Source of the DNA: an uncultured Desulfobulbia bacterium
Lineage (GTDB): Bacteria; Desulfobacterota; Desulfobulbia; Desulfobulbales; SURF-16
Direction: 5' to 3'
Assembly (NCBI GenBank): GCA_964653055.1
Contig: CAZZCA010000008.1
Coordinates: forward strand, 5,371-69,370
DNA: 64,000 bases
A program made the position numbers and the translations under genes. Below are positions 1,798 through 52,534 of the stretch, piece by piece (positions within the stretch are counted from its first letter, which is position 1; every line of letters begins with the position of its first letter). The notes under the pieces were generated by a model, which made no database searches, was not told where the DNA came from, and was given only the letters and a program-made list of their open reading frames with translations.

Positions 1798-2049
1798 TTA
1801 AGCTTTTGCGATATAGAAACGAATGAAGCCAGAATCTTCTTTCTCGCCGAGGTAGTCGTGACCTGAACGCTCACACCAGCCGGGGAGATCATTCCGGGAG
1901 CCGGGATCGGTACCGAGAATTTCAAGAACATCGCCGGAGCCGAGTTTGTTCATCTCTTTTTTGGTTTTCAGTAAGGGCATGGGGCAGCTGAGACCTTTGG
2001 CGTCGAGGGTGGCAGCTACATCAATGTTGTCCGGTGCTTGTTTGCTCAT
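1798..2049 (-). CDS. tusA: TusA/SirA-family sulfurtransferase
   Basis: LDAKGLSCPMPLLKTKK (CPxP motif), LEILGTDPGS; GAGGA RBS. Confidence 0.92.
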   Translation of the reverse strand: MSKQAPDNIDVAATLDAKGLSCPMPLLKTKKEMNKLGSGDVLEILGTDPGSRNDLPGWCERSGHDYLGEKEDSGFIRFYIAKA

Positions 2050-2386
2050 GGTTTCCTCCTACAATGGATTACCGTTAATATTGACATCAAGGTATTGCTA
2101 ATAAATAATCACTCTTTATCTAAACTATAGGGCTGAAAATGTTAAGGCTTTAACAGGAATGATGGATACTGTCAAGAAAAATGAGGGGGGATTCAATTTG
2201 CCTGTCATGGCTCTTGCTTAAATAGCTTAAATTTGTTGTGACATGCTTGACAAACAGCGTTGCCGTGGGTAAAGAATTATTGATCTTAAACTCTGAGGTT
2301 AAGATGTATAAGGAATCTGAGTCGGCCTTGGTGCCGGTGGCAGTTATCATTGATGTAACTGTCAGAAAAAAAGGAGATTTTTTGTT

Positions 2387-3616
2387 ATGAGTGAAGGAAT
2401 TTTTGGCAGCAAGGTAAAGAAACTGTACAAGGCGCTCTGTCAGGAGGAGTGGAACGCCATGACTGCAGGTATTCTGGTGGCTCTGTTCAGCATCCTGATC
2501 ATGGCCTGGTGGCGTCCCTGGGGCGCAGTTGGTGCGGTACGGAATTGGGGTGACTGGATCGTTTATGGTCTTGGTCTGTGGGATTCATTAGGTTTCTGGG
2601 AGGCTGATGCTCCCAAAAATATTCTTTATAATTCCGGTTCGGTAATTGGTATCGGTTTTGTCGGCGGCGCTTTTGTCTCAGCCTGCCTGGGTAACGATTT
2701 TGCCATCCGTATTCCTCCGGTGATTGAGCTGGTCAAAGGTGTTATGGCCGGTCTGCTTCTTGGTGTCGGTTCTACCCTTGCCGGTGGTTGTAATGTCGGT
2801 GGTATGTTCAACGCCATCGGTAATCTGGCAGCCAATGGTTTCACCATGTGGCTCGGCCTTATTATTGGTGTTCTGCTCGGTCTCAAATACATCTACTGGG
2901 AGATGGAGCATATCAGCTGGGGTGGCGGTGGTGCCAAAACCATTGAATTTCCCAGTGGCCTGAAGGCTCTCCTGGGTGTTGTTGCCCTGGTTGCTCTTAT
3001 TGCCGGCGCTTATTCCTATGCCGGTAACGAAGACAGCGATTATATCGCCTCGCTCAGTGGTATCCTGATTATTGCCGCAGGACTTGGTTATACCATGCAG
3101 CGCGGTCGCTGGTGTATGGTTCAGGGTTTCCGTGAACCCCATATGACCGGTGACTGTACCATGGCAAAAGCAGTGGCTCTCAGCATCATGATTGTTGCTG
3201 TTGGCGCTGCTGTACTCAAATATGGTGTTCCCATGCGTTTTGATGGTGATCCTGTTCTTCACCCCATTAATTATGTTCGCGGTACCTTTGGCTGGGGCTC
3301 CATTGTTGGTGGTCTGATCTTTGGTTTTGGTGCTATGCTGGCCGGTGGCTGTGGTACCGGTACCCTGTGGCGGGTTGGTGAGGGTCAGGTTAAGCTCTGG
3401 CTGGTTGTCCCCATTTTCGGTATTACCAACTCTATTATGACCGGTTGGTTCCGTGATGGTGATTTTGAAGCCGATGGCCTCCTGGGGTCCTACCTCTTCC
3501 TCCCCGATGTTATGGGGTTTGGCGGGTCTCTGTTCCTGGTTGCCGGTTCTATGCTGGCCTGGTACCTCATTGTTGAGTGGAACGAGGATTCCAATAAGCT
3601 GGTTCTCGACATGTAG
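2387..3616 (+). CDS. YeeE/YedE-family sulfur-compound (thiosulfate) transporter
   Basis: Polytopic membrane protein with Cys motifs LAGGCNVG, QRGRWCMV and LAGGCGTGTL; divergent from tusA. Confidence 0.9.
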   Translation: MSEGIFGSKVKKLYKALCQEEWNAMTAGILVALFSILIMAWWRPWGAVGAVRNWGDWIVYGLGLWDSLGFWEADAPKNILYNSGSVIGIGFVGGAFVSACLGNDFAIRIPPVIELVKGVMAGLLLGVGSTLAGGCNVGGMFNAIGNLAANGFTMWLGLIIGVLLGLKYIYWEMEHISWGGGGAKTIEFPSGLKALLGVVALVALIAGAYSYAGNEDSDYIASLSGILIIAAGLGYTMQRGRWCMVQGFREPHMTGDCTMAKAVALSIMIVAVGAAVLKYGVPMRFDGDPVLHPINYVRGTFGWGSIVGGLIFGFGAMLAGGCGTGTLWRVGEGQVKLWLVVPIFGITNSIMTGWFRDGDFEADGLLGSYLFLPDVMGFGGSLFLVAGSMLAWYLIVEWNEDSNKLVLDM

Positions 3617-40303: not shown

Positions 40304-40396
40304 ATGACCTTAGCATTAATTTTAGGTTGGGTTGCCCTGATTGTTGTTTCATATGAAGGCGCGGTCTATGCCCTTAACAAGACCGGGATTCTTTAA
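40304..40396 (+). CDS. Putative cytochrome bd small single-TM subunit (CydX/CydS-like), 30 aa, absent from ORF track
   Basis: GAGGAGG RBS 12 nt after the cydB stop; MTLALILGWVALIVVSYEGAVYALNKTGIL*. Confidence 0.75.
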   Translation: MTLALILGWVALIVVSYEGAVYALNKTGIL

Positions 40397-40412
40397 TCCT
40401 GTTTAGCAAATT

Positions 40413-40478: not shown

Positions 40479-40565
40479 GCCGGAGTGGTGAAATTGGTAG
40501 ACGCACGGGATTCAAAATCCCGCGGATGTACGTCCGTGTCGGTTCGATTCCGACCTCCGGCACCA
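40479..40565 (+). tRNA. tRNA-Leu(CAA), 87 nt, long variable arm, encoded CCA
   Basis: GCCGGAG acceptor stem; D-loop TGGTAGAC; anticodon arm CGGGA-TTCAAAA-TCCCG; T-arm GTCGG-TTCGATT-CCGAC; 3' CTCCGGCACCA. Confidence 0.97.
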
Positions 40566-40595
40566 TATAATCCAATATCATCTGATATTGTCTAT

Positions 40596-40630
40596 AAACC
40601 CTGTCAGCCGTAAGGCTTGCAGGGTTTTTT
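40596..40630. terminator. Terminator after tRNA-Leu
   Basis: AAACCCTG-tcAGCC-GTAA-GGCTtg-CAGGGTTTTTT (GNRA loop, U-tract). Confidence 0.8.
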
Positions 40631-40710: not shown

Positions 40711-40779
40711 CCCGGCAGAACATTTAGATGGTGTATAGAATTAGTCAGGAGAAGGCTTCTCGGTATTGTTTCCTGTTTT

Positions 40780-42108
40780 TTACCAGCGCCGATACAAATC
40801 TGCCAATTTTTTAATTGGCATTCCGCAGAGCAACCCAAGGATCATAAGCTGATTAATCATGGTGGTACGGAATATGCCAAGCCGTTGCCAGCGCCGAGCC
40901 GATGTTATGGCTTCCCGGGGAAGGGTTATTATTCTGCCCCGACACCGGAGGCGGTGCACAAGCTCAAGATCCTCCATAATAGGCATGGTGGCAAAACCGC
41001 CCACCTCCTCAAACATTCTTTTTTTCATAAACAGTCCCTGATCACCATAGGGATATTTCAATTTTGTCGAACGAAAATTTGCCACCCACTCAACTACCCG
41101 CATTGGCAGCCTGGAATCATTTGTTTTAAAACGAAAGGCCCCTGCTACAGTGGCAGGATTATCCAGGGCATGGATGATCATATTGGCGTATCCGGCTGGC
41201 AGGATTGTGTCGGCGTGCAAAAACAGCAGGATCTGCCCTTGGGCAACACTTGCCCCCCTGTTTAATTGAGCAGCACGGCCCTGGCTAACCTTCAAGATCG
41301 TGGCCCCGCTCTTCAATGCTATTTCCCGAGAATTGTCATGACTGCCTCCATCCACCACAATGACTTCAATATTTTCGGCCCGGTTTATTTGTTTCAGGGT
41401 TGCACCAAGTACCGGCGCCTCATTCAAAGTGGGGATAATAACTGATATAACGGCATTGGAATCAAATATATCTTTATAGTGGGAATTGGAACGGATCATA
41501 TCCAAATCATTTGGCCTGTCCACATCACTTAAAATCGGCAATTCTGCCAAGCGGAGATCAAGCCCTTTGACCTTCTTCCTGGTTTGTTCAAAAACCTGCT
41601 CTGTTCCCCAGTCAATTTCTTTAAATAAGTCCTGGTGTGCGGACTTCATTCCAATAAGGTAATATCCACCATCAGCCGCAGGACCAAGGACAACATCGTT
41701 TTTATTCAAACCCTCCCGGGCACGGGAAATAATATCTGCGGTCAGCCCTGGAATGTCAGTGCCAATGATGATGGTCGCGCCTGTAGCCTCATTTTCCCGG
41801 GTGACCGTTTCGATTGCCCGCTGCATTCGCTGACCAATAGTGCCTGATGGTTGTGATCTGTAATGCAGGTCATGGCCCAGCCAGGCGCGGAAGTCTTTAA
41901 GGGGGGCCCCTGTGCAATATACCGTAACGAGTATGTTTTTTTTGCCGAACTCATTGCGAAAAGACCTGGCAACTCCCACAATGTATTCAGTCATGCGTCT
42001 ATGCAGCTGAGCTGCTTTTTCAGCCCCGAGCGCCGGGATCAATCGGGTTTTTGCCTTTCCTGCCTCCGGAAAACGACAAAAAATCAGTAATCGGCAATTT
42101 AGAGTCAT
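40780..42108 (-). CDS. Fused glycosyltransferase pair: TIGR04282-type (DUF2064/CofC-like) plus TIGR04283-type (GT2)
   Basis: N-half PEAGKAKTRL, IGTDIP, VLGPAADGGYYLIG, SDVDRPNDL; C-half ISVIIPTLNEA, VVDGGSHD, GRAAQLNRGA, LFLHADT, YGDQGLF, PIMED, TSARRW. Confidence 0.88.
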   Translation of the reverse strand: MTLNCRLLIFCRFPEAGKAKTRLIPALGAEKAAQLHRRMTEYIVGVARSFRNEFGKKNILVTVYCTGAPLKDFRAWLGHDLHYRSQPSGTIGQRMQRAIETVTRENEATGATIIIGTDIPGLTADIISRAREGLNKNDVVLGPAADGGYYLIGMKSAHQDLFKEIDWGTEQVFEQTRKKVKGLDLRLAELPILSDVDRPNDLDMIRSNSHYKDIFDSNAVISVIIPTLNEAPVLGATLKQINRAENIEVIVVDGGSHDNSREIALKSGATILKVSQGRAAQLNRGASVAQGQILLFLHADTILPAGYANMIIHALDNPATVAGAFRFKTNDSRLPMRVVEWVANFRSTKLKYPYGDQGLFMKKRMFEEVGGFATMPIMEDLELVHRLRCRGRIITLPREAITSARRWQRLGIFRTTMINQLMILGLLCGMPIKKLADLYRRW

Positions 42109-42212
42109 CGTTGTAATCCAGACATTTTCGAGATCGATTGTCCAATTTGTTCATCACTATAATAGGCCATCTGTGATGGTGGTGAGATCAGGTTTCTTTG
42201 ATAAATAAAGAC

Positions 42213-44054
42213 TTATGGTTTTTGCTTAGACAGTAAAGGTATCGAGGACACTCCGGCTATTAGCAGGACCCCGACGAAAAACTCAGGGGTAAGATTTCCC
42301 TGCAGGACTTCCAGTAGAGAACTTGAGAAAACAATATAGGCTATGCAGGCTGGCAGCATACAGATAAAAGAGCTTATTGCGTAATGGCTGAACTTAACCT
42401 TGGTAAGTCCAAAAGCGTAGTTAAGGAGGTTAAAAGGAAAAAGAGGGATCAGTCGGGTAAAGGCGACTGCTTTCCAGCCATGTCTCTCAACCATGGTGTC
42501 TAGTTGTTGCAATTTCGAGCTGCGCAGTTTTTCTTCTATCCAGGACCTACCGATGTAGCGGGAGATGAGGAAGGCAATACAGGCTCCGACGGTAGCGCCG
42601 CTGATGCTGTATATTACGCCCCATAATGGCCCGAACAGGATGCCGCCGATAATGGTGAACGGCAGTCCTGGAAGTAAAAGTGCTGGAGCCGCAGCATAGG
42701 TCAGCATGAAGATAAGAGGAGCCAGTGCTCCATAACCCTGGATTAGCGATTGTAGTTTCTCTTGATCAAGGTAGTGGCTCATCCCGCTCAGGTGGGCTGT
42801 TGCCAGTGCAATGATAAATGTAATCAGGGTCAGCAGCCGTGGCATATTTATTCGCGGTTTCTTGTCTTCCCCGGTAAAGGTCCTAATCCGGCTGGTGGTA
42901 GGATGTATTTTCTTTTTAAAATGGCGTTTCAACTGCAGGCGGTTGAGGTATGTCCAGGGGGCTTTAGAGCTTTTTGTCTTGCCGGCAAGAGTTGCCTCAG
43001 GGGCAAAAAGTAGATCAAGGATGTGACTGGTTGGTGTGATTGAACCCAAAAAGTTAACACAGCCGGCGCAATAGGTAAGAATCAGTCTGCCATTGGCTTC
43101 TTCTTTTCGCCGTCTTCCCCAGACCTTTGCCAAATCATCATTAACACACCCTACAGACCCTCCTTCGCCACAGCAAAGAGTTTTGAGACTATGGTGTTCC
43201 ATCTCTTTAATCGTTAATGATTTTTCCATGGCTATTTTGCGGATAGCCGCATGAATATGCGTATCATTTCTGGTGCTGCATGGGTCGTGTATAGTGATCT
43301 CTGCTGGAATATCTGCTTTTGCCGGCAGTGATGTTTCCGCCAGATATTCGTATACTGTTTTAACATTAAGGTTATTTCCATATTGCTTGAAGACCCGGTA
43401 GCAGTTAGGACAGGCCACCAGGATATTTTCTACCCCATGCTGTAACAGGTATTCTTTCATTTCACCAAACATGGCATGGAAATGTTTTTCTCTGCCAAGG
43501 TCATGGGATGGTTTGGTGCAACAGTCCAGAACTATTCCGAGATCTGGCAGAGTGGTCTGCAGGTGATCGAAGAGAGATTTGACCCTGCCCGGCCTGGTCC
43601 CGGGAAGTGCACACCCCGGGAAAAGGATGGTGTCGCAGTTTTTCGGGAGGGCGTAGTAGGAATAATGCCTGGAGGCCCCCCGTTTCTCATAACCCAGGAT
43701 AGTGTTATAGGCGGAAAAATCCTCTATTCCCACGGCAACAGCCTCCTGCCGCATTGCCAGAAAGAGTGCTGCCGGGTTCAGTCCGATTTTAGGCGGACAG
43801 CTGTTTGCGCATAGGCCGCAGAGGCTGCATTCAAAGGCAAGCCCTGGGGTGTCCAGGGAAAAACTGGCGGCAATGGCCTTTGGAGAGCCATTTTTTTGGA
43901 GAAAGGAGCATTCTTTTTGACAGAGTCCGCATTCGATACATTTGTCGACATGACACGCAAGTTCTTTCTGAATAGTGAGGCTTTGTGGTGAATACGATGT
44001 TTCAGGCATGATATGTCCGGGCAAAGAGAAAGCTGTATTTATGGCAGGGTCCAA
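42213..44054 (-). CDS. Fe-S/CCG-domain oxidoreductase (HdrD/GlpC-like) fused to a C-terminal DedA/TVP38 (VTT) membrane domain
   Basis: CIECGLCQKEC and CSLCGLCANSCP ferredoxin motifs; PGC, CCTKP, ACPNC, HDPCS, CCGEGG, YCAGC; C-terminal LPGLPFTIIGGILFG...RLIPLFPFNLLNYAFG. Start may be ATG 44009. Confidence 0.88.
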   Translation of the reverse strand: MDPAINTAFSLPGHIMPETSYSPQSLTIQKELACHVDKCIECGLCQKECSFLQKNGSPKAIAASFSLDTPGLAFECSLCGLCANSCPPKIGLNPAALFLAMRQEAVAVGIEDFSAYNTILGYEKRGASRHYSYYALPKNCDTILFPGCALPGTRPGRVKSLFDHLQTTLPDLGIVLDCCTKPSHDLGREKHFHAMFGEMKEYLLQHGVENILVACPNCYRVFKQYGNNLNVKTVYEYLAETSLPAKADIPAEITIHDPCSTRNDTHIHAAIRKIAMEKSLTIKEMEHHSLKTLCCGEGGSVGCVNDDLAKVWGRRRKEEANGRLILTYCAGCVNFLGSITPTSHILDLLFAPEATLAGKTKSSKAPWTYLNRLQLKRHFKKKIHPTTSRIRTFTGEDKKPRINMPRLLTLITFIIALATAHLSGMSHYLDQEKLQSLIQGYGALAPLIFMLTYAAAPALLLPGLPFTIIGGILFGPLWGVIYSISGATVGACIAFLISRYIGRSWIEEKLRSSKLQQLDTMVERHGWKAVAFTRLIPLFPFNLLNYAFGLTKVKFSHYAISSFICMLPACIAYIVFSSSLLEVLQGNLTPEFFVGVLLIAGVSSIPLLSKQKP

Positions 44055-44202
44055 GTTGCCATAAATCTTGGTGTTCTCCTATTTTGTTGTTTGACTGTAA
44101 GTAAGGAGCCATGCCACATTTATTGATGTTAAAGCGGCAATTCCAATATGTAAGCATACAGGAATTGCCTTTGATAGAGCGACAATCTTATGAATACTTA
44201 AG

Positions 44203-44622
44203 TTATTTTTTGACCAACAGGTCACTATATGGCCATTTCTCCACACCGCCTCTTAAGATGGTTAGTTTCTCCTCGGGAACCCCTTGGCTCTTCATGTAAG
44301 AATAGGTTCTTTTGGCCCCGCCTCCGCCTCTGGGACAAACGACAACCACATTGTTGGCGGTGTCTTTAAAGGATTTTACGGCCACGTCGAGCTGTGCCCG
44401 CTGGGCATCTGTTTTGACGGGGTAGGCATTCGTCTCCAGGGAACCGGGAAAATGATGGGCTGTAAATTCATCTTTCACCTGGATGTCGACAATGATCATG
44501 GGCTTATTGTTTTCCAGCCATTGTTTAAACTGATTGGTCTCCAGGTAATTAAATTGCTCAAAAATAAAAGCTGCATTGAGCAGGCAGATAAGGGAAATAG
44601 CAGTAATAGTTAATTTTTTCAT
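44203..44622 (-). CDS. Secreted single-domain rhodanese
   Basis: Signal-like N-terminus MKKLTITAISLICLL; IVDIQ...HFPGS; active loop VCPRGGG; LRGGVEKW; AAGAGG RBS. Confidence 0.85.
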   Translation of the reverse strand: MKKLTITAISLICLLNAAFIFEQFNYLETNQFKQWLENNKPMIIVDIQVKDEFTAHHFPGSLETNAYPVKTDAQRAQLDVAVKSFKDTANNVVVVCPRGGGGAKRTYSYMKSQGVPEEKLTILRGGVEKWPYSDLLVKK

Positions 44623-44726
44623 GTGGTTTTCCTCTTGGTGTAGTAGTGAAATTGTCATACCATTTGAATAATTAAAAACAAGTTATCTCGTATTTTCCGA
44701 TATTGCAAATTGGAAATATCTATAGT

Positions 44727-44741
44727 ATAGCTATTAGCTAT
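44727..44741. promoter_or_regulatory. Putative LysR operator (ATAG-N7-CTAT, T-N11-A)
   Basis: ATAGCTATTAGCTAT, a near-perfect palindrome in the divergent lysR/rhodanese intergenic region. Confidence 0.55.
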
Positions 44742-44779
44742 TTGGTAATTAAATACTTGTTTTCTGGACAAGGAATCTC

Positions 44780-45691
44780 ATGGAAATCAATAAACTTGAA
44801 GCCTTCTGTAAGGTGGTTGAGCTAAAGAGTTTTACCCGGGCGGCTGAAGCGGTGTTTCTTACCCAGCCAACTGTCAGCGAACATATTCGCAGTCTTGAGC
44901 AGGAGCTTGGAGAAAAACTCCTGGACAGGATGGGACGAGTTGTGGAACCGACTCCGGTGGGGCGTTTATTTTATGGATATGCCCGTAAAATTCTTAAAAC
45001 CCGGAATGAGGCCAAGGAGGCGGTGGCACAGTTCAGTGGCAATCTGGTCGGTAGTATTCTGGCTGGTTGCAGTACCATACCTGGAACGTATTTACTCCCG
45101 GAATTGATTGGCGGATTTCGTGCCCGTTACCCTTCCATTAAAACGACTCTGCATATAAGTAGTTCGCGAATTATTGCTGGAAAGGTGTTGGAGGGTGAGT
45201 TGGATTTTGGGGTGGTTGGGGCCAAATGGCGGGAAAGTGGCCTGAACTGGGCCCAGATGTTTCATGATGAGTTGATTCTGGCCGTACATCCTGATCATCC
45301 GTGGGCGATGGACGGCAAGCCGGTGCCATTGGCCAGAGTTATGCAGGAACCTTTTATTCTGCGTGAGACTGAATCCGGCACCAGGAAAGTATTTTCCCTG
45401 ATTCTTGCCGAAAACGGGCTGAAGGAAAACGATCTTCGCGAAGTTGCTGAAATAGGCTCCACTGCAGCAATTAAAGAAGCGGTCAAGGCAGGAATCGGAA
45501 TCTCTATTCTATCCCGGTGTGCTCTTAAGGATGATATTAACTGTGGCCGAATTGCGGCTGTAAATATTCACAGTCAGACACTGGAACGGTCATTTTACCT
45601 GGTGCAGCGTAAAAATAGAGAGCTTTCCCCTGTTGCTTCGGTGTTTTTGGAATATCTCCGGGATAATGCAGAGTCGGTTGGTGTAATTTAG
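44780..45691 (+). CDS. LysR-family transcriptional regulator (resembles the CysL / selenium-metabolism-associated subfamily)
   Basis: HTH FCKVVELKSFTRAAEAVFLTQPTVSEHIRSLE; GCSTIPG; RETESGTRK; IKEAVKAGIGIS. Confidence 0.93.
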   Translation: MEINKLEAFCKVVELKSFTRAAEAVFLTQPTVSEHIRSLEQELGEKLLDRMGRVVEPTPVGRLFYGYARKILKTRNEAKEAVAQFSGNLVGSILAGCSTIPGTYLLPELIGGFRARYPSIKTTLHISSSRIIAGKVLEGELDFGVVGAKWRESGLNWAQMFHDELILAVHPDHPWAMDGKPVPLARVMQEPFILRETESGTRKVFSLILAENGLKENDLREVAEIGSTAAIKEAVKAGIGISILSRCALKDDINCGRIAAVNIHSQTLERSFYLVQRKNRELSPVASVFLEYLRDNAESVGVI

Positions 45692-48600
45692 TCTTGATTC
45701 TTGAGTTTTATGTTATGCGTTGAAAAAGTTTTTTCCCGATTAGACCACAGGGGGCATTTCTGGTGAATACAATCCGAATTTTTTGGGTATTGATTACAGA
45801 CAGGCTTAGAGTCAGCGATTAAGTCAAGGCCCATCTCCCGGCTGATCAATGCCGCCTCCTGTAGGGTGGCAACCGATTCCCGCAGACAGCAACGGGCCCC
45901 TGTCACCTCAGATAGCTTGAGCAAGATCCGACCAACTGCCCCCATGGCCAACTGTCGCCCCTCGGGTGTCATCGGAGTACTCTGGAGAATTATGGCAAAG
46001 CCAATTCCTGCCCCTACAGCCGCCCCGCAATTGCCCATAAAGCCACAGGAGCCCCCTGGCACTCTGGCTCCGCGAGCCAGGGCAAGATCCACCATTTCGT
46101 TCTTGTCGATTCCTTGACTATTAGCAAAGGCGGCAACCATAACCGCTGGAACCAGTAAATGGTGTTCTGGACCATGCATGGGAACAGCCGGATGACTGCG
46201 AATTTTAGTTAACAACGATAAAATATCACTTTCAGTACTTCTTGAGCAGATATGCCTTATCACCTCAGCACCTTCCTGCTGGTGACATGAGTCACAGACA
46301 AAATGACCACCCTTACACAAGACAGAGGCCCCTGTCGAAGATCCGCAATAATGACAGACAGTATCTTTTTCCTGCCATCCATAAACAAGTTCTTGACCAC
46401 AGACCATACAACCGGATGTTAAGTGAGGAAGAGATTCAGGAGCAGGTGAGATTTTTTCCTGGTTTTTAAGCATGGCCAATGGAAATGGCTGGGGATCGCT
46501 CTTGTTACCGGTACAAGCACAGCCACCGGCCATGTCCTGATTACTGACTGCGCCCTGTTTATCAAGTACCCATAATGATGTGTTATCCTCATGGGGGTTC
46601 ATACCCCTGGTCAGCGTGGTGCGCTTACCTTTGAGCAGGAATTGACCATCTTCTCGATAAAGGCCGCCATGGGGGCCAGGATAAATAACCTCGAGTTCAT
46701 CTTGCTCGAAGGCCTGCTTGAAGGCTACAAAGGTAAGAGAATAGAAATCGACTCCCCCAAGTTGGCGATAAGGGAATCGTTTAAGCAAGGAGATATCTCT
46801 GAAACCGGACGCCTGAAGCATGGCCACAAGTTTTTCCTGCTCCATAGCGCCGCCAAGACATTCTCCCCGCAGTTTATGGTTAACCATTATTGATATCGGC
46901 AAGGGACCATCGGTTACTATATCTGAAACCACCAATCGCCCTCCTGGTTTTAAAATTCGGAAGGCCTCTGCCATGGTCTGCCGTTTATCAGCGCTGAGGT
47001 TAATCACACAATTTGAGATTACTGCATCTGCCATCTGATCAGCCAAGGGGATGGCCTCGAGAAAACCTTTGCAGAAATTAACATTATCATAACCGAGACG
47101 TGCAACTACATCTCTTTTGGAATCAGCTGCAAGGTCCAGCATGTCATCGGTCATGTCAATTCCAATTACCCGGCCTTTTCCACCCACCGCGTCAGCGGCC
47201 ATAAAACACTCCACTCCGGAGCCACTGCCCAGATCAACCACAACCTCACCAGTCTCTGGTGCGGCATCATCCACCGGGCTGCCACATCCGTAAGAGCGCT
47301 TACGGCTAACCTCAGGGATATAGCCGGCATCTTGCTGGCTGCCAGCAAAAGGGTTGATTATTTCTTTATTGTCCTTTCTTGCGGCCTGGGCATAAAAATC
47401 ACCCACCAACGACCGGTCTGCGCCACCAGTTAAGGATATCAGACAATTGCAATGAGTAAGGCTTACCCCGGTCTGATCCTCATCGGCAGAAGGGCAATCA
47501 TGACGAACATCGCCCATGCGCAGAATTATCTCTGGAGTTTCCGGCTGATTGCAGTTAGCTGCCTGTCGACTGATCAGGTAGAGGCATATTTTATTATAAA
47601 GTTCAAGGTAGGGATCATGGCCAACCAATTCGCCGGCCTGGATAAAACTATGGTCATGATCACCGCCACCGGTAAGAAAACGGAAAGGATCATCAGCCGT
47701 CCGGGAGTGATCGAGAAGGCTTGCCCGCCGAACCTTATAACTGATTTTGCTATTACGCCATACTTCAGCCAACCCCTGGCTAAGATGACCCATGTTCATT
47801 TCATCTAAAGCCACCAGGGCCGGGGAAGGATAAATACAGGCATCAGGGCCAATGGCCAGGGATTGCCAGCCACTATTGCTGAGATCGTGTCTGGTTCCTC
47901 GAGGTGCCATTACCTGGGCCCGCAGGTAGTCAAAATTGTCAATTATTACTCCCAGTTTGCCGGCAACCTGATGGGCCTTTAGCAGGTTATTGAAAATTTG
48001 CTCAGGAGCAACAAATCTGCTGTCATCGCCTTTACCGCGTTTGAAATACCAGAGGTAGTGAATATTCTTGACTCCCATTTCGGCGGCTACCAGGGTCAAG
48101 GTCGGCAAATCATTTACATTATCACGTTGAACAACGGTGGAAAGGGTTACAGCAAAACCTTCAGCCTGTAACAAATTGACTGAATTAATTAATTTCTGGT
48201 AGGTACCTTTGCCTCGAATAAGGTCATGCCCTTTTTCAAGACCGTCCATACTTAGCTGGAGGTGAAAACGCTTACGGGGCAGGCGGCGCAGATCATCAAG
48301 GTGACGGGGGACAGCCATGCCATTTGTTAATACCACAACATGGAGTTTGGGGTTTGCGGCAAGCAGGTCAGCTAATCGGGGTAACAGGCCAGGGTAGACC
48401 AATGGCTCACCACCGGTAAAGATAAGAAGCTCAAGACCAAGTTCAAGGGCTTGCTTGATTGCCAAATCAAGATATTCCTGGGGAAGATGATCAGCCTGGG
48501 CCGGTGAACTGCTGAAAAGGCAGTGACAGCAGGACAGGTCACAGGCATTGGTCAGGTGAATCCACAACTCCCTTAACCTGGTAAGGGTCAGATGCTTAAA

Positions 48601-48858
48601 TCGTCCCTGATAATGAGCAATGGCCCCGGGATCAATGAGCAGACGAAGACGTTCAAGATGAAAGTCCGGCGATGACTCATCAACAGAATAACCCTGTATA
48701 ACTCTGTCTGCTGATGCTGATGGCACAAACCAGTCCGGAACATCTGGGTTAAGGTAAATGGGGCAGCCGGCAAATTCATAGCGTTGCCAATTAGTATTTT
48801 TAATGGTCCAATTTGTCATAGTTAAGAATTCCCTACTATATAATAACTCTGGATTCAA
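45688..48858 (-). CDS. Radical SAM / degenerate SPASM + ArsM-like As(III) methyltransferase + DUF5714 fusion (start may be ATG 48819)
   Basis: CDLSCCHC (C106-C110-C113), FTGGEP; MTase SYGCGSP, VDLGSGSG, IGIDMT, ISNCVINL, GECLGGA; Cys-rich C-terminus CMVCG...CHYCG...HGPEHH...GSCGFMGNCGAA...RCC. Confidence 0.85.
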   Translation of the reverse strand: MNPELLYSREFLTMTNWTIKNTNWQRYEFAGCPIYLNPDVPDWFVPSASADRVIQGYSVDESSPDFHLERLRLLIDPGAIAHYQGRFKHLTLTRLRELWIHLTNACDLSCCHCLFSSSPAQADHLPQEYLDLAIKQALELGLELLIFTGGEPLVYPGLLPRLADLLAANPKLHVVVLTNGMAVPRHLDDLRRLPRKRFHLQLSMDGLEKGHDLIRGKGTYQKLINSVNLLQAEGFAVTLSTVVQRDNVNDLPTLTLVAAEMGVKNIHYLWYFKRGKGDDSRFVAPEQIFNNLLKAHQVAGKLGVIIDNFDYLRAQVMAPRGTRHDLSNSGWQSLAIGPDACIYPSPALVALDEMNMGHLSQGLAEVWRNSKISYKVRRASLLDHSRTADDPFRFLTGGGDHDHSFIQAGELVGHDPYLELYNKICLYLISRQAANCNQPETPEIILRMGDVRHDCPSADEDQTGVSLTHCNCLISLTGGADRSLVGDFYAQAARKDNKEIINPFAGSQQDAGYIPEVSRKRSYGCGSPVDDAAPETGEVVVDLGSGSGVECFMAADAVGGKGRVIGIDMTDDMLDLAADSKRDVVARLGYDNVNFCKGFLEAIPLADQMADAVISNCVINLSADKRQTMAEAFRILKPGGRLVVSDIVTDGPLPISIMVNHKLRGECLGGAMEQEKLVAMLQASGFRDISLLKRFPYRQLGGVDFYSLTFVAFKQAFEQDELEVIYPGPHGGLYREDGQFLLKGKRTTLTRGMNPHEDNTSLWVLDKQGAVSNQDMAGGCACTGNKSDPQPFPLAMLKNQEKISPAPESLPHLTSGCMVCGQELVYGWQEKDTVCHYCGSSTGASVLCKGGHFVCDSCHQQEGAEVIRHICSRSTESDILSLLTKIRSHPAVPMHGPEHHLLVPAVMVAAFANSQGIDKNEMVDLALARGARVPGGSCGFMGNCGAAVGAGIGFAIILQSTPMTPEGRQLAMGAVGRILLKLSEVTGARCCLRESVATLQEAALISREMGLDLIADSKPVCNQYPKNSDCIHQKCPLWSNREKTFSTHNIKLKNQD

Positions 48859-48951
48859 GTATTGCTCTTCAAACTTGAACTAGGGAATTGCCCAGCTTCT
48901 TTCAGAAGATTTGTTTATGGGGCCGGGTAGGCGCTTGGTCTTTATGGGTAT

Positions 48952-49035
48952 TTATTTCTGGACCAGCCAGAGGCTTAGCTGGGGGCAGTAGGTGATAAGG
49001 GCCAGGGTCAGCAGGAGTAGGCCGAGGAAGGGCAG
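48952..49035 (-). repeat. Intact copy of the boundary repeat (3' end of dctM)
   Basis: 81% identical to 40629-40710, same orientation. Confidence 0.8.
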
Positions 49036-50235
49036 GGTGGCCCGGTAGAGTTTGATGATCGGTTGTTCAAAGCGGTAGCTGGCGAGAAAGAGGTTGAGGC
49101 CCACCGGTGGGGTGCAGTAGCCGATCTGAAGGTTGGTGAGGAAGATGATGCCGAGATGGATGAGATTGATGTCGTAGCTCTTGGCAATGGGGACAATCAG
49201 CGGCACTACCAGGACCAGGGCAGAGAAGATGTCAAGCATGGAACCAATAATCAGCAGAAACACATTTAAGAGCAGAAGGAAGGTGTATTTATTGTTGACA
49301 TATTGGTGGATAAACTCAAATATCCGGGTTGGGATCTCCATATCCACCAGGAAATTGGTGGAGGCCATGGAGGCACCCAGGATTATTAGGATCCCCCCGA
49401 ACAGCATCATTGAATGGACCATTAATCCGGGCAGACGCTGCCAGGAGATGTCTTTATAGATCACCACTTCCACAATCAGGGCGTAAAGAACGGTAACCGC
49501 TGCTGCTTCGCCCACCACGAAAAACCCCCCATAGATCCCCCCCAGGACAAGAAATGGCAGGGGTAGTTCCCAGGCAGCTTCTCTTAGTCCCTTTATAATT
49601 TCTGATTTATCTATGGGTTTATTTTCTTTGGGGGGGCTCTTTTTCATGCAGTAGATGCTGATGATGGTCAGCATCAGGAGGCCGGGGATGAGGCCGGCTA
49701 AAAAGAGCTGGTCGATTCGGGTCTCGGCAATTACTCCGAAGAGGATCAGGGGCAGGCTGGGTGGGAAAAGAAGGCCGATGCTGCCGGACGAGGTGATGAG
49801 TCCCAGGGAGAATTTTTCCGAATAATTATCCTTGAGCATGGCCGGCATGAGCAGGCCACCCATGGCAAAGATGGTTACCCCGGATGCACCGGTGAAGGCG
49901 GTGAAGATGGCACAGATTAGAAGGGCAACCATGGCAAGCCCCCCCGGCATCCAGCCCAGAAGCAGGCGGGAAAGATTGAGTAGCCTTTGGGGGGTATTGC
50001 TTTCCGAGAGGATGGATCCGGCAAAGATGAACAGGGGGAGAGCCAGCAGGAGTGGGGTGTCGGCCAGCCGGGACATTTCGATGATTACCACCGAAATGTC
50101 GATACCAGCCCCATAAAAAGAGATCAGGGCAATAGCGGCGATGACAATAAAGAGAGGGCAGCCGATGACGGCTAGCAGGATGGGGATGAATTTAAAAAGG
50201 ACCATGCTATTTTCCGCCCCTGGCAAGCCCGGCAA
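48952..50235 (-). CDS. dctM: TRAP transporter large permease
   Basis: LLALPLFIFAG, GSIGLLFPPS, TPPVGLNLF; about 12 TM segments. Confidence 0.94.
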   Translation of the reverse strand: MPGLPGAENSMVLFKFIPILLAVIGCPLFIVIAAIALISFYGAGIDISVVIIEMSRLADTPLLLALPLFIFAGSILSESNTPQRLLNLSRLLLGWMPGGLAMVALLICAIFTAFTGASGVTIFAMGGLLMPAMLKDNYSEKFSLGLITSSGSIGLLFPPSLPLILFGVIAETRIDQLFLAGLIPGLLMLTIISIYCMKKSPPKENKPIDKSEIIKGLREAAWELPLPFLVLGGIYGGFFVVGEAAAVTVLYALIVEVVIYKDISWQRLPGLMVHSMMLFGGILIILGASMASTNFLVDMEIPTRIFEFIHQYVNNKYTFLLLLNVFLLIIGSMLDIFSALVLVVPLIVPIAKSYDINLIHLGIIFLTNLQIGYCTPPVGLNLFLASYRFEQPIIKLYRATLPFLGLLLLTLALITYCPQLSLWLVQK

Positions 50236-50701
50236 TTATTTTAAGCAGGTCCCCTGTAAAATGGAGGGTGATCAGAGCAAAGCCCAGGGGGAAGATCAGG
50301 CTCCAGATCCAGGCCGGCATGAGCAGGCTGGTGCCGCCGTATGTCATTTCGGATGAGGTAAAGATAATTGCCGCTGCGGTTAAGGCTCCGGTCACCAGTA
50401 TGGAGCAGAGATTAATGACGAGTTCCAGCCAGGTTTGCACCTTGTTTGGTGCCAGGTAAGAGGCAATGTCAATGGCGATGTGTTTGCCTTCCCGGGTGGC
50501 CACCACTGCCCCCATCATCCCTACCCAGAGGACCAGTTGACGGATTAAGGGCTCACTCCAGAGAAAACCGGTCCCCATGGTGGTGCGCAGGATGATCTGG
50601 CTGCAGGCGATAATGATGATTGCTGTCAGCAGCAGGCAGAGCAGGCCGTCTTCCAGCAGCCTGAGCCAGCGGCTGCCTTTATCAAGAAACTGCAGGCTCA
50701 T
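50207..50701 (-). CDS. dctQ: TRAP transporter small permease
   Basis: Four TM segments; WSEPLIRQLVLWVGMMGA...REGKHIAID. Confidence 0.9.
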   Translation of the reverse strand: MSLQFLDKGSRWLRLLEDGLLCLLLTAIIIIACSQIILRTTMGTGFLWSEPLIRQLVLWVGMMGAVVATREGKHIAIDIASYLAPNKVQTWLELVINLCSILVTGALTAAAIIFTSSEMTYGGTSLLMPAWIWSLIFPLGFALITLHFTGDLLKIIAGLARGGK

Positions 50702-51690
50702 TTGCGATACTGATCAAGGATTTGCATGGTGCTTTGCAGAACTTCCCGGGAAAAGGCCTTGCCGGTGATCTGGCGAACGGTCTGGTCCCGCAGGTTGAGT
50801 AATTCCTCTTCTGTCCCAGGCTGAGGCTGGATCATCTGGACACCGTTTTGTTGCAGGACCTGGCGGGCCTCATGGTTACTTTTGCGGGTATCGGCCAGTA
50901 AAAGGCCGAAATGTTTCTCGGCTGCCTTTTTCATGATGGCCTGATAGGGTGCGGGCAGGCGGGAGAAGTGGCGATGATCGAGGAGGAAGGCTCCATAGGC
51001 ATAACCAAAGGGGATGTCGGCAATATAGCGGGCCTTGGTGAACCATTGCAGGACGATGGAGCCGTAAAAACTATTGAATACCGTTTCCACCATTCCGGTC
51101 TGCAACGAGGTAAGAACATCTGGGATGCCAAGAGGGGTGGGGGCTATGCCCAGGGTCTGCAGATAGGCAGAGCTGATCGGGTCCCCTTCCGGGGTCCAGC
51201 ACCTGCTTTTTTGCAGGTCGGACAAGGTGGTCATGGGGGTGGTTGACATGGTGTAGATAAAGCCGATTTCGGTAAGGGCCAGCAGCTGAAGGCCACGGTG
51301 GCTGAAGACCTGGTCGAAATGGGGCCGCAGACCATGGCGGACCTGATCCACCTCCTGGTATGAGCGAAAGAGAAAGGGGATGCCCATTACCCGGAAATCA
51401 GGGATGATCTCGCCGATACCGGTCATGGTGAAGCCGCCGCCATGGAGCTGACCAACCCGCATCTTGCGGAGCATGGCCTTGTCGTCTCCCATTATGCCGC
51501 CGGGGTAGATCTTAAAGCCGATTTCCCCGTTGCTTTTTTCTTGGACCTCCCGGGTAAAGTCGCGGAACCGTTTCACCCAGATACTGCCTTCCGGCGCTAT
51601 GGAGGCAATTTTGAAAAGATAACGAGGGCCGGCCAGGGCGGGTAGCGCCATACATAGGCTTAAGAGTAGGGTGATGATGGTTGTTTTCAT
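50698..51690 (-). CDS. dctP: TRAP substrate-binding protein (TatP(T)-type DctP)
   Basis: Signal peptide; KIASIAPEGSIW; YPGGIMGDD; LQTGMVE. Confidence 0.9.
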   Translation of the reverse strand: MKTTIITLLLSLCMALPALAGPRYLFKIASIAPEGSIWVKRFRDFTREVQEKSNGEIGFKIYPGGIMGDDKAMLRKMRVGQLHGGGFTMTGIGEIIPDFRVMGIPFLFRSYQEVDQVRHGLRPHFDQVFSHRGLQLLALTEIGFIYTMSTTPMTTLSDLQKSRCWTPEGDPISSAYLQTLGIAPTPLGIPDVLTSLQTGMVETVFNSFYGSIVLQWFTKARYIADIPFGYAYGAFLLDHRHFSRLPAPYQAIMKKAAEKHFGLLLADTRKSNHEARQVLQQNGVQMIQPQPGTEEELLNLRDQTVRQITGKAFSREVLQSTMQILDQYRK

Positions 51691-51691
51691 A

Positions 51692-52534
51692 TTAGAAGTA
51701 TAGCTCGATATCGGCCAGTAATTGTCTGGCCCGTTTTTTGGCAATTTGATTGGCCAGGGTCAGTTCCGGCCTGTCGGTCAGGGGGAAATAAATTACTTCC
51801 TGGAGCAGGGACTGATAAAGTTTACGGTTGAAGGTGGTGCGGGCGTAAGTTTCAGCATAGCTCACCTGGACCGGCAGAAATTGGCGTTTGCTCAGTTTCA
51901 AGGCTCGTTCAAAATGGTTGTGGCTGGCCTTGGGCCGACCCCCGAAAGTAGGTGGCCTGGAGCCGTAAATGGCCCCCAGGAGGAGATGGGCGCCGCCATA
52001 ATAATAGCCATCATCCAGTTCGATGACCTGTTTCATGATTTCTTCCACCTGGACGAGAGCTGCCATGGCCGCCGGGCTTCCTTGCTGGAAATTGATCCAG
52101 CTTGCCAGGCTGTAGCCTCCCCAGAAGAGATGATCGATTTCTCGGCATTGGGCCAGGCTCTGGCTGAATTCAGGGCCGGCATTTTGGGCATTGACTCCGC
52201 ACCTGGTCAGTAGGTTCTGGCCGTAGTCTCTTGCCCGAAAGCTCATTTCCTCTGCCCGCTCCTTGCGCTCGCAGGCGGCAAGGGCGGTGCTATAGGCAGT
52301 ATAGGCCTTGGTTGCCTGGATCAATAATTCAGCATTATCCGGGTTATTGGCGGTCATGCTGTCTATTATCAGGAGAAAGGCCGGGGCACCATCGCATACC
52401 AGATCAAGATCAGACTGGTATTGAAGGCCGGTTATTGCCGGAGGGATCACTGAGTTATAGACCATGCTGGCGCAACCGGTCAGCAGGACGGTCAGCACGG
52501 TGATGATAATATTCTGCCGGAAATGACGACTCAT
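51692..52534 (-). CDS. tatT: TRAP-associated TPR lipoprotein (TatT)
   Basis: Lipobox LLTGC; YYYGGAHLLLGAIYGSRPPTFGG; HFERAL; NQIAKKRA; first gene of the dctPQM operon. Confidence 0.8.
   Translation of the reverse strand: MSRHFRQNIIITVLTVLLTGCASMVYNSVIPPAITGLQYQSDLDLVCDGAPAFLLIIDSMTANNPDNAELLIQATKAYTAYSTALAACERKERAEEMSFRARDYGQNLLTRCGVNAQNAGPEFSQSLAQCREIDHLFWGGYSLASWINFQQGSPAAMAALVQVEEIMKQVIELDDGYYYGGAHLLLGAIYGSRPPTFGGRPKASHNHFERALKLSKRQFLPVQVSYAETYARTTFNRKLYQSLLQEVIYFPLTDRPELTLANQIAKKRARQLLADIELYF

Follow-up and report, generated by a model that had tools for sequence, protein, structure and literature searches.

Two radical S-adenosylmethionine (SAM) enzymes are, to our knowledge, the only ones known to form carbon-arsenic (C-As) bonds, namely ArsS in the synthesis of arsenosugars and ArsL in the synthesis of arsinothricin. 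Both are found in aerobes or phototrophs, and for the arsenosugar pathway of Synechocystis we know of no step after ArsM and ArsS. ArsL adds a 3-amino-3-carboxypropyl radical to As(III) that is held by a Cys-rich RCCLKC tail, after which ArsM methylates. ArsS adds a 5'-deoxyadenosyl group to the dimethylated trivalent arsenical, DMAs(III), made by ArsM (PMC13598754). Here we analysed a 64,000-nucleotide stretch, hereafter the window, from an uncultured Desulfobulbia bacterium (Desulfobulbales; SURF-16; GenBank assembly GCA_964653055.1, contig CAZZCA010000008.1, positions 5,371 to 69,370), which carries a cluster of five genes. The largest encodes a fusion of a radical SAM domain, an ArsM-type methyltransferase and a DUF5714 domain, and the others encode a LysR-type transcriptional regulator (LTTR), a rhodanese, an Fe-S/CCG module fused to a VTT membrane domain, and two glycosyltransferase (GT) family domains fused in one protein. 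We tentatively propose, with slightly less than even confidence, that the cluster encodes an anaerobic pathway to a SAM-derived organoarsenical, in which a radical SAM domain that is not orthologous to the known enzymes forms a C-As bond on the product of ArsM. An initial annotation of the window had described the same five genes and their domain structures; all five open reading frames (ORFs) lie where it had placed them, and Pfam and NCBIfam confirmed the domains.

The methyltransferase in the middle of the fusion protein is a genuine ArsM-type domain. The protein matches Methyltransf_31 of Pfam (E=8e-30), the ArsM-type domain has the class I SAM-binding motif VVDLGSGSG, and its best NCBIfam match is arsenite methyltransferase (NF008823, E=2e-64). 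The nearest sequence matches in the Protein Data Bank (PDB) are CrArsM (5evj), human AS3MT (8xt7) and CmArsM (4fr0), and Foldseek aligns the domain to ArsM structures with E~1e-18. In phmmer alignments with CmArsM, CrArsM and AS3MT, the putative As-binding residues Cys512 (YGCG), Cys604 (SNCVINL) and Cys654 (GECLGGA) fall on Cys72, Cys174 and Cys224 of CmArsM, which are the crystallographic As(III) ligands. None of the three varies among 73 sequences of Desulfobulbales or among 17 from several phyla, and a conserved CxC (Cys767 and Cys769) follows the domain.

Sequence matches and a structural model both place the radical SAM domain in the SPASM/twitch lineage. The domain matches Radical_SAM of Pfam (E=8e-20) and contains the core motif CX3CX2C (Cys93, Cys97 and Cys100), invariant in the homologues aligned, and a GGE motif in the form FTGGEP. 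The best NCBIfam matches, taken as the 25 best of 60 listed, are SPASM/twitch-lineage enzymes, and the nearest sequence matches in the PDB include BlsE and SkfB. With the full-length AlphaFold2 model of the fusion protein (predicted local distance difference test, pLDDT, 82.6), Foldseek retrieved CteB (5wgg/5why) and anSMEcpe (4k36-4k39) at template modelling scores of 0.65-0.76, and BlsE and PqqE were also found. The C-terminal extension of the domain is degenerate: Pfam SPASM reaches only E=0.08, under its gathering score, the Cys set of an auxiliary [4Fe-4S] cluster was not found in the 17 sequences from several phyla, and only Cys442 and Cys459 are invariant among them. The absence of an ArsS-type C-terminal domain, which the initial annotation had pointed out, holds, as neither DUF3641 nor TIGR04167 matches the extension at E<=10 and Pfam and NCBIfam give weak SPASM-type matches only; its view of the route as non-orthologous agrees with the lineage assigned here. 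Membership of the ArsS family was rejected, TIGR04167 not being among the best 25 of 60 NCBIfam matches (rank 25 = 45.8 bits). The ArsL family was rejected likewise, with NF040542 not among the best 25 matches and no C-terminal RCCLKC tail.

Proteins with the radical SAM-ArsM-DUF5714 architecture form a conserved family that is still uncharacterised. Among 5.8 billion proteins searched, more than 120 clusters matched over the full length at about 50% identity, which carry only the name 'DUF5714 domain-containing protein'. Most are from Desulfobulbales, including Desulfobulbaceae, Desulfocapsaceae, Desulfurivibrionaceae and Thiovibrio, and scattered members occur in at least five phyla besides that of Desulfobulbales. 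Species genomes with the fusion are those of Hydrosulfovibrio, Desulfogranum japonicum, Candidatus Electrothrix, Eisenbacteria, Chitinivibrionales, Pirellulaceae, Acidobacteriota and Thermoanaerobaculia, and it is also present in a Desulfuromusa genome (L088). The literature searched contained no description of DUF5714 or of a radical SAM-ArsM fusion.

When the radical SAM domain alone served as query, exhaustive HMMER searching recovered 109 representatives at E<=1e-30. Judged by length and Pfam scan, these relatives include triple fusions, radical SAM-ArsM proteins (P0404, P0412 and P0432), and ArsM-radical SAM proteins (P0425, P0430 and P0435), and some are radical SAM proteins that apparently stand alone. 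Motifs of the types SNCV[IV]N and C[IL][GS]GA are retained by most of the two-domain relatives checked, whichever their order, and arsenite methyltransferase is the best NCBIfam match of the two that were scanned (P0404 and P0430). The same two domains are thus fused in both orders, which is strong evidence for a shared substrate.

Two variant architectures were also observed. The ArsM-radical SAM proteins P0425, P0430 and P0435 (about 680-710 amino acids, aa) continue into a full SPASM domain and form a sister architecture to the family of the window. In a metagenome-assembled genome of Thermoanaerobaculia (L016, 9680-13356), a radical SAM-ArsM gene without DUF5714 is directly followed by a gene for a GTPase of the CobW/HypB/UreG family, a metallochaperone type, a hint that a different metal-handling protein may be able to take the place of DUF5714.

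Fourteen Cys are conserved in the Cys-rich DUF5714 domain, which contains the motif HGPEHH and, within RCC(L/Q)RE, a vicinal Cys pair that is invariant. Its AlphaFold2 model (pLDDT 82.9) shows a four-Cys zinc-ribbon hairpin followed by a helical bundle; a PDB sequence search with the domain gave no match, and Foldseek of the model against the PDB returned nothing at E<=0.001 (best E=0.45). Its sole family resemblance is to NF045648, the 'metal-binding double selenoprotein MbdU' reportedly defined by Haft and Tolstoy in 2025, whose N-terminal half (positions 23-276) it matches at E=2e-39, far under the cut-off. The selenocysteine (Sec) motif of MbdU is listed as 'CU' (PMC13188914), and this may correspond to the invariant CC pair of DUF5714. 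Metagenome contigs (L135, L141 and L148-L172) encode some 30 DUF5714 proteins that stand alone and are roughly 240 aa long. Around some 18 of their genes, cytidylyltransferase-like genes (5/18) and sugar-nucleotide enzymes with GT1 (in four) form a weak theme that is uninformative on function.

The accessory proteins pointed out by the initial annotation are real. Both halves of the GT fusion pass curated cut-offs, TIGR04282 at 201.8 bits (cut-off 134; aa 7-202) and TIGR04283 at 249.6 bits (cut-off 182; aa 221-439), and Pfam finds DUF2064 and Glycos_transf_2. The TIGR04282 half has a CofC/MobA-like nucleotidyltransferase fold, and the TIGR04283 half belongs to GT2. NCBIfam names both 'arsenosugar biosynthesis glycosyltransferase', a name that we take to derive from gene co-occurrence and not from experiment. 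The GT fusion family is common (7891 matches; older JGI name 'rSAM/selenodomain-associated transferase 2/1') and uncharacterised. In the literature searched, no mention of TIGR04282 or TIGR04283 was found, and arsenosugar, glycosyltransferase and ArsM together gave no match.

In the Fe-S/CCG-VTT protein, the ferredoxin motif CxxCxxCxxxC occurs twice, the CCG motif is present in two complete copies, and about 5-6 hydrophobic segments lie in the VTT domain (Pfam Fer4_17/Fer4_8, CCG twice and VTT_dom). The protein is predicted to join an HdrD/GlpC-like part to a VTT/DedA (TVP38) membrane domain. The Fe-S/CCG part aligns to positions 300-670 of 759 in NF045663, the flavoprotein disulfide oxidoreductase/dicluster-binding protein family, with a score of 210 bits (cut-off 530); the N-terminal flavoprotein domain of that family is absent. 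The Fe-S/CCG-VTT fusion family is likewise common (2259 matches at 56-72% identity), conserved and uncharacterised. Some of its members (P0242-P0244, P0255 and P0261) reach about 830-855 aa through a C-terminal extension of about 240 aa without a Pfam match.

The remaining two genes encode the rhodanese and the regulator. The rhodanese has a single domain with a catalytic-loop Cys (VVVCPRGGGGAKR) and a hydrophobic N-terminal segment (aa 4-22) that is predicted to be a signal peptide or membrane anchor. The LysR protein belongs to NF040786, 'selenium metabolism-associated LysR' (302.9 bits; cut-off 250). The 121-bp intergenic region between lysR and the rhodanese gene holds the palindrome ATAGCTATTAGCTAT with a T-N11-A, which by the general LTTR-box rule is a candidate LysR binding site.

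Partial sets of these genes recur around homologues of the fusion gene. A VTT/DedA gene was present in 16 of the 52 fusion loci with downstream sequence (directly downstream in 14) and in 1 of 64 control loci with plain ArsM; the Fisher p of 7e-6 for this enrichment is calculated with metagenome loci, collected with DUF5714-specific search patterns, that are not phylogenetically independent. Genes of TIGR04282 and TIGR04283 adjoin the fusion gene in four loci (L010, L013, L014 and L126), lie 3 kb away in Desulfuromusa (L088) and were found in none of the 64 controls. The operon of L013, from a very distant lineage in which the fusion protein is only 33% identical, has the order VTT, tandem rhodanese, TIGR04282, TIGR04283 and fusion, and is the one locus with a rhodanese near a fusion homologue. 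Other loci consist of fusion-VTT pairs. Directly upstream of the fusion gene in L003, L101, L102 and L111 lies a gene for a flavoprotein disulfide reductase similar to MerA and lipoamide dehydrogenase, in the order VTT, disulfide reductase and fusion in L102 and L111. In L089, a VTT gene and a disulfide reductase gene of the same family (NF004991, above cut-off) are followed by a GT fusion. The window has no such flavoprotein and has an Fe-S/CCG part aligning to the region behind the flavoprotein in NF045663, and this part looks like an alternative reductase.

Two of these loci have further features. The tandem rhodanese of L013 (810-1709) is a weak match, under cut-off, to NF045521 'rhoda_near_glyco', a name suggesting that curators had already noted rhodaneses near glycosyltransferase genes. 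The operon of L102 (1741-10714) is preceded by genes for glucose-6-phosphate and 6-phosphogluconate dehydrogenases, which are NADPH sources.

Beyond the domain assignments and the co-occurrence, we infer every step of the proposed pathway. The ArsM domain would methylate As(III) to the monomethylated form, MAs(III), or to DMAs(III), and the methylated trivalent arsenical would pass to the radical SAM domain without release, maybe held by the invariant Cys442/Cys459 dithiol, a putative site of metalloid binding or disulfide redox chemistry. A SAM-derived radical would then form a further C-As bond, either through 5'-deoxyadenosyl, the group that ArsS adds, or through a different fragment, as ArsL does. 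The covalent fusion would channel the toxic, oxidation-prone methylated As(III) to this second C-As bond-forming step. By analogy with AhpD, DUF2284 and the Cys/Sec tails on other ArsM proteins of anaerobes, DUF5714 would act as a metalloid-binding or thiol-redox module that captures As(III) or re-reduces enzyme disulfides. The HdrD-like Fe-S/CCG module would supply disulfide or As(V) reduction, a role that the MerA-like flavoprotein reductase would take in other genomes. The nucleotidyltransferase-like TIGR04282 domain and the GT2 domain of TIGR04283 would derivatise the product, the VTT/DedA domain would carry it across the membrane, either as such or linked to a lipid, and LysR would control the divergent operon of rhodanese, Fe-S/CCG-VTT and GT fusion genes. 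The initial annotation had overstated an inference in naming a glycosylated methylarsenical.

The most economical reading is that ArsM has in the fusion family a third radical SAM partner, not orthologous to the other two. The further claim, that it represents a third independent radical SAM route to a C-As bond after ArsS and ArsL and that anaerobic bacteria of the sulfur cycle use it to make an organoarsenical new to science, is somewhat unlikely; one candidate product would then be a nucleotide-activated, glycosylated or lipid-linked methylarsenical moved by the VTT domain.

Several observations weigh against an organoarsenical pathway. The members of the family are known from sequence alone, and the characterised members of the SPASM/twitch lineage mostly modify peptides or cofactors; the radical SAM domain of the fusion, which belongs to this lineage, is related to ArsS and ArsL only at superfamily level. 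The NF008823 match of the methyltransferase scores 217.7 bits, under the whole-protein cut-off of 263, and covers model positions 38-234 of 272, making it a domain-level match. The fourth, N-terminal Cys of ArsM (Cys44 in CmArsM) is not evident, there being no Cys in residues 460-512 ahead of Cys512 itself; Cys457 and the invariant Cys459 lie 53-55 residues before Cys512 and could substitute for it. Conserved neighbours of the fusion gene are lacking in most genomes, and within the neighbourhoods examined the gene never lies in an ars operon, so that an arsenic role is not backed by regulatory context. A Pfam census of ±4 kb around 16 genomic fusion loci found no dominant partner and no ars genes. 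Because the fusion gene stands alone in most genomes, the five-gene arrangement is unusual and not typical. The recurrence of the set elsewhere, to which the initial annotation had tied its case, is seen for VTT, rhodanese and TIGR04282/TIGR04283 genes (L013 and others) and fails for LysR and the Fe-S/CCG module, neither of which was found beside any other fusion gene; both Fe-S/CCG-VTT homologue neighbourhoods examined show stand-alone genes. The Fisher p overstates the significance of the VTT enrichment because the metagenome loci lack phylogenetic independence.

The alternative closest to the proposed pathway keeps the anaerobic arsenite methyltransferase and makes the radical SAM domain a SPASM-type maturase or redox helper that forms no C-As bond. 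It might then modify a Cys of its own ArsM or DUF5714 domain, or a separate peptide or cofactor, and the genes around it would have roles in the general homeostasis of thiols and the membrane. We consider this unlikely, even though the closest relatives by structure and hidden Markov model (CteB, anSMEcpe, SkfB, AlbA, MftC and PqqE) modify peptides or proteins, more distant relatives retain a significant SPASM domain, and the beta3-alpha N-terminal domain in the AlphaFold2 model recalls a peptide-recognition element. The N-terminal 85 aa of the fusion protein gave no Pfam match to RRE or PqqD, however, and the surroundings of the fusion gene revealed neither a small ORF that is conserved nor a gene for a peptide substrate. 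The auxiliary-cluster Cys are lost, only two Cys being invariant, and the lineage also holds the small-molecule enzymes BlsE, NirJ, AhbD, MoaA and HpnH. The repeated fusion to ArsM in both domain orders further argues that the shared substrate is small.

A change of element, with selenium or another soft element (tellurium, antimony or sulfur) in place of arsenic, is less probable still and in our view distinctly unlikely. The ArsM-like domain would here methylate a selenide or thiol species, with the rhodanese as carrier of persulfide or perselenide and a seleno-sugar-like compound as the product of the GT pair. The formal membership of LysR in NF040786, the resemblance of the Fe-S/CCG part to NF045663 'diclust_near_Sec' and of DUF5714 to the selenoprotein MbdU, the rhodanese in both the window and L013, and the lack of ars genes nearby are consistent with it. 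The scores to NF045663 and NF045648 are nevertheless far under the cut-offs, and these labels derive from selenocysteine-containing homologues, a class reported as implicated in Hg/As metal(loid) chemistry (PMC13188914). The names therefore do not imply a selenium substrate, and the selenium alternative, which the initial annotation had drawn from the rhodanese and the LysR subtype, leans mostly on such names. Moreover, the methyltransferase keeps the exact three-Cys As(III) site of the solved ArsM and AS3MT structures, and no selD, selA, selB, yedF or sen genes are present within the annotated 1.8-58.8 kb of the window. That five unrelated genes, each widespread in Desulfobacterota, became neighbours by chance and share no pathway is very unlikely. 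Each of the three large families usually stands alone in the neighbourhoods examined, and the best-match identities of 51%, 60% and 72% differ, suggesting different histories. Distant lineages nonetheless carry partial sets in varying gene order (L010, L013, L014, L088, L089, L102, L111, L126 and the fusion-VTT pairs), whereas around the 64 plain ArsM genes no member of the set was found save one DedA gene.

The five genes and their flanks are arranged as listed in Table 1. Translation of the fusion protein most likely begins at an ATG 39 nt into the longest ORF. The LysR and fusion genes converge with an overlap of 4 bp, and the LysR gene is transcribed divergently from the rhodanese operon. 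A TPR-protein-associated tripartite ATP-independent periplasmic (TRAP) transporter, TatT-DctPQM, is encoded on the same strand 132 bp upstream of the fusion gene; no TRAP transporter was seen beside other fusion homologues in the neighbourhoods examined.

Table 1. Positions of the cluster genes, the domains of the fusion protein and neighbouring features in the window
Feature	Position	Strand	Remarks
GT fusion gene	40780-42108	-	442 aa; TIGR04282 + TIGR04283
Fe-S/CCG/VTT fusion gene	42213-44009	-	598 aa from ATG; ORF extends to 44054
Rhodanese gene	44203-44622	-	PF00581 E=1.5e-9
Perfect 15-nt palindrome ATAGCTATTAGCTAT	44727-44741	.	Read from sequence
LysR gene	44780-45691	+	NF040786; Pfam HTH_1 + LysR_substrate
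Radical SAM/ArsM/DUF5714 fusion gene	45688-48819	-	1043 aa from ATG
DUF5714 domain (aa 796-1043 + stop codon)	45688-46434	-	PF18978 E=1e-52
ArsM-type methyltransferase domain (aa 467-760)	46540-47421	-	SAM motif DLGSGSG; putative As-binding Cys triad
N-terminal half of fusion gene (aa 1-466)	47422-48819	-	Beta3-alpha N-domain, radical SAM core, degenerate SPASM/twitch-like extension
TatT-DctP-DctQ-DctM TRAP transporter genes	48952-52534	-	132 bp upstream of fusion gene
tRNA-Leu(CAA) gene	40479-40565	+	Rfam/ARAGORN
Terminator-like hairpin	~40594-40630		After tRNA-Leu(CAA)
30-aa hydrophobic ORF MTLALILGWVALIVVSYEGAVYALNKTGIL	40306-40398	+	Directly after cydB
TusA gene and 'Sulf_transp' gene	1826-3616		Left end of window

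The term island, under which the initial annotation had presented the cluster, finds little support. The cluster is bordered by the tRNA-Leu(CAA) gene, located between cydAB and the GT fusion gene, and its G+C content of 0.45-0.49 is 3-5 points lower than outside (0.50-0.54). Only this tRNA adjacency and the slightly low G+C favour an island. No integrase or other mobility gene was found in the annotated flanks, no direct or att-like repeats flank the cluster, and the 3' end of the tRNA-Leu gene is not repeated elsewhere in the window. The surrounding 57 kb encodes core metabolism, including arginine and lysine synthesis, rpoN, cytochrome bd, ATP synthase and hemL. The remark of the initial annotation that arsR, arsC and acr3 are missing is borne out, none being found by Pfam annotation of 1.8-58.8 kb or by a motif grep of the whole window.

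A few features outside the cluster were also recorded. A terminator-like hairpin follows the tRNA-Leu(CAA) gene, which is the sole RNA gene detected in the window by Rfam or ARAGORN; an Rfam scan for riboswitches and SECIS elements near the cluster found this tRNA alone. The short ORF behind cydB, with a gene call also in public contigs, probably encodes a small cytochrome bd subunit resembling CydX. Some 40 kb away from the cluster, the TusA gene and the neighbouring gene for a YeeE/YedE-type membrane protein form a pair for the uptake of a sulfur (or selenium) compound.

A widespread family, absent from the literature searched, physically couples a non-orthologous radical SAM domain to ArsM. 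If a new C-As bond is formed, the family would show how anaerobic sediment bacteria make complex organoarsenicals and would provide a genetic basis for the production of arsenosugar- or arsenolipid-like organoarsenic in sulfidic sediments. It would also represent a new reaction for the SPASM/twitch lineage and give the first functional handles on DUF5714, TIGR04282/TIGR04283 and the VTT fusions with their reductase partners.

The locus resembles each of the described systems in part. Like ArsM and ArsS of Synechocystis, it pairs an ArsM-type methyltransferase with a CX3CX2C radical SAM enzyme, and members of TIGR04282 and TIGR04283 and a VTT/TVP38 domain are present in the window as in ArsS neighbourhoods. 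Unlike ArsS (TIGR04167), the radical SAM enzyme of the window has no Cys-rich DUF3641 domain and is of the SPASM/twitch lineage; unlike the Synechocystis pair, the two enzymes are fused, carry an additional DUF5714 domain, occur in an anaerobic host and have a disulfide-reductase module and a rhodanese attached. The arsQML genes of Burkholderia gladioli offer a second parallel, in which the radical SAM enzyme ArsL forms the C-As bond and cooperates with ArsM. The likeness between the RCCLKC of ArsL and the invariant RCC(L/Q)RE of DUF5714 spans three residues only, and in contrast to ArsL the RCC motif of the window lies in a separate 250-aa domain instead of a C-terminal tail, with neither an ArsQ permease nor an ars operon. 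The SPASM/twitch enzymes anSMEcpe, CteB, SkfB, BlsE and PqqE are the best structural and NCBIfam matches of the radical SAM domain, whose distant relatives keep the SPASM domain at significant scores; unlike these enzymes, the domain of the window does not have the auxiliary-cluster Cys set. The Fe-S/CCG-VTT protein shares two [4Fe-4S] ferredoxin motifs and two CCG domains with CCG proteins of the HdrD/GlpC/DsrK type and with NF045663, and differs from the latter in having a fused VTT/DedA membrane domain in place of the flavoprotein domain. The ArsM proteins of anaerobes with Cys/Sec-rich tails form families without a radical SAM domain, and unlike them the fusion contains no selenocysteine and scores far under their cut-offs. 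With these proteins, the fusion has in common an ArsM-type domain followed by a C-terminal redox or metal-binding domain.

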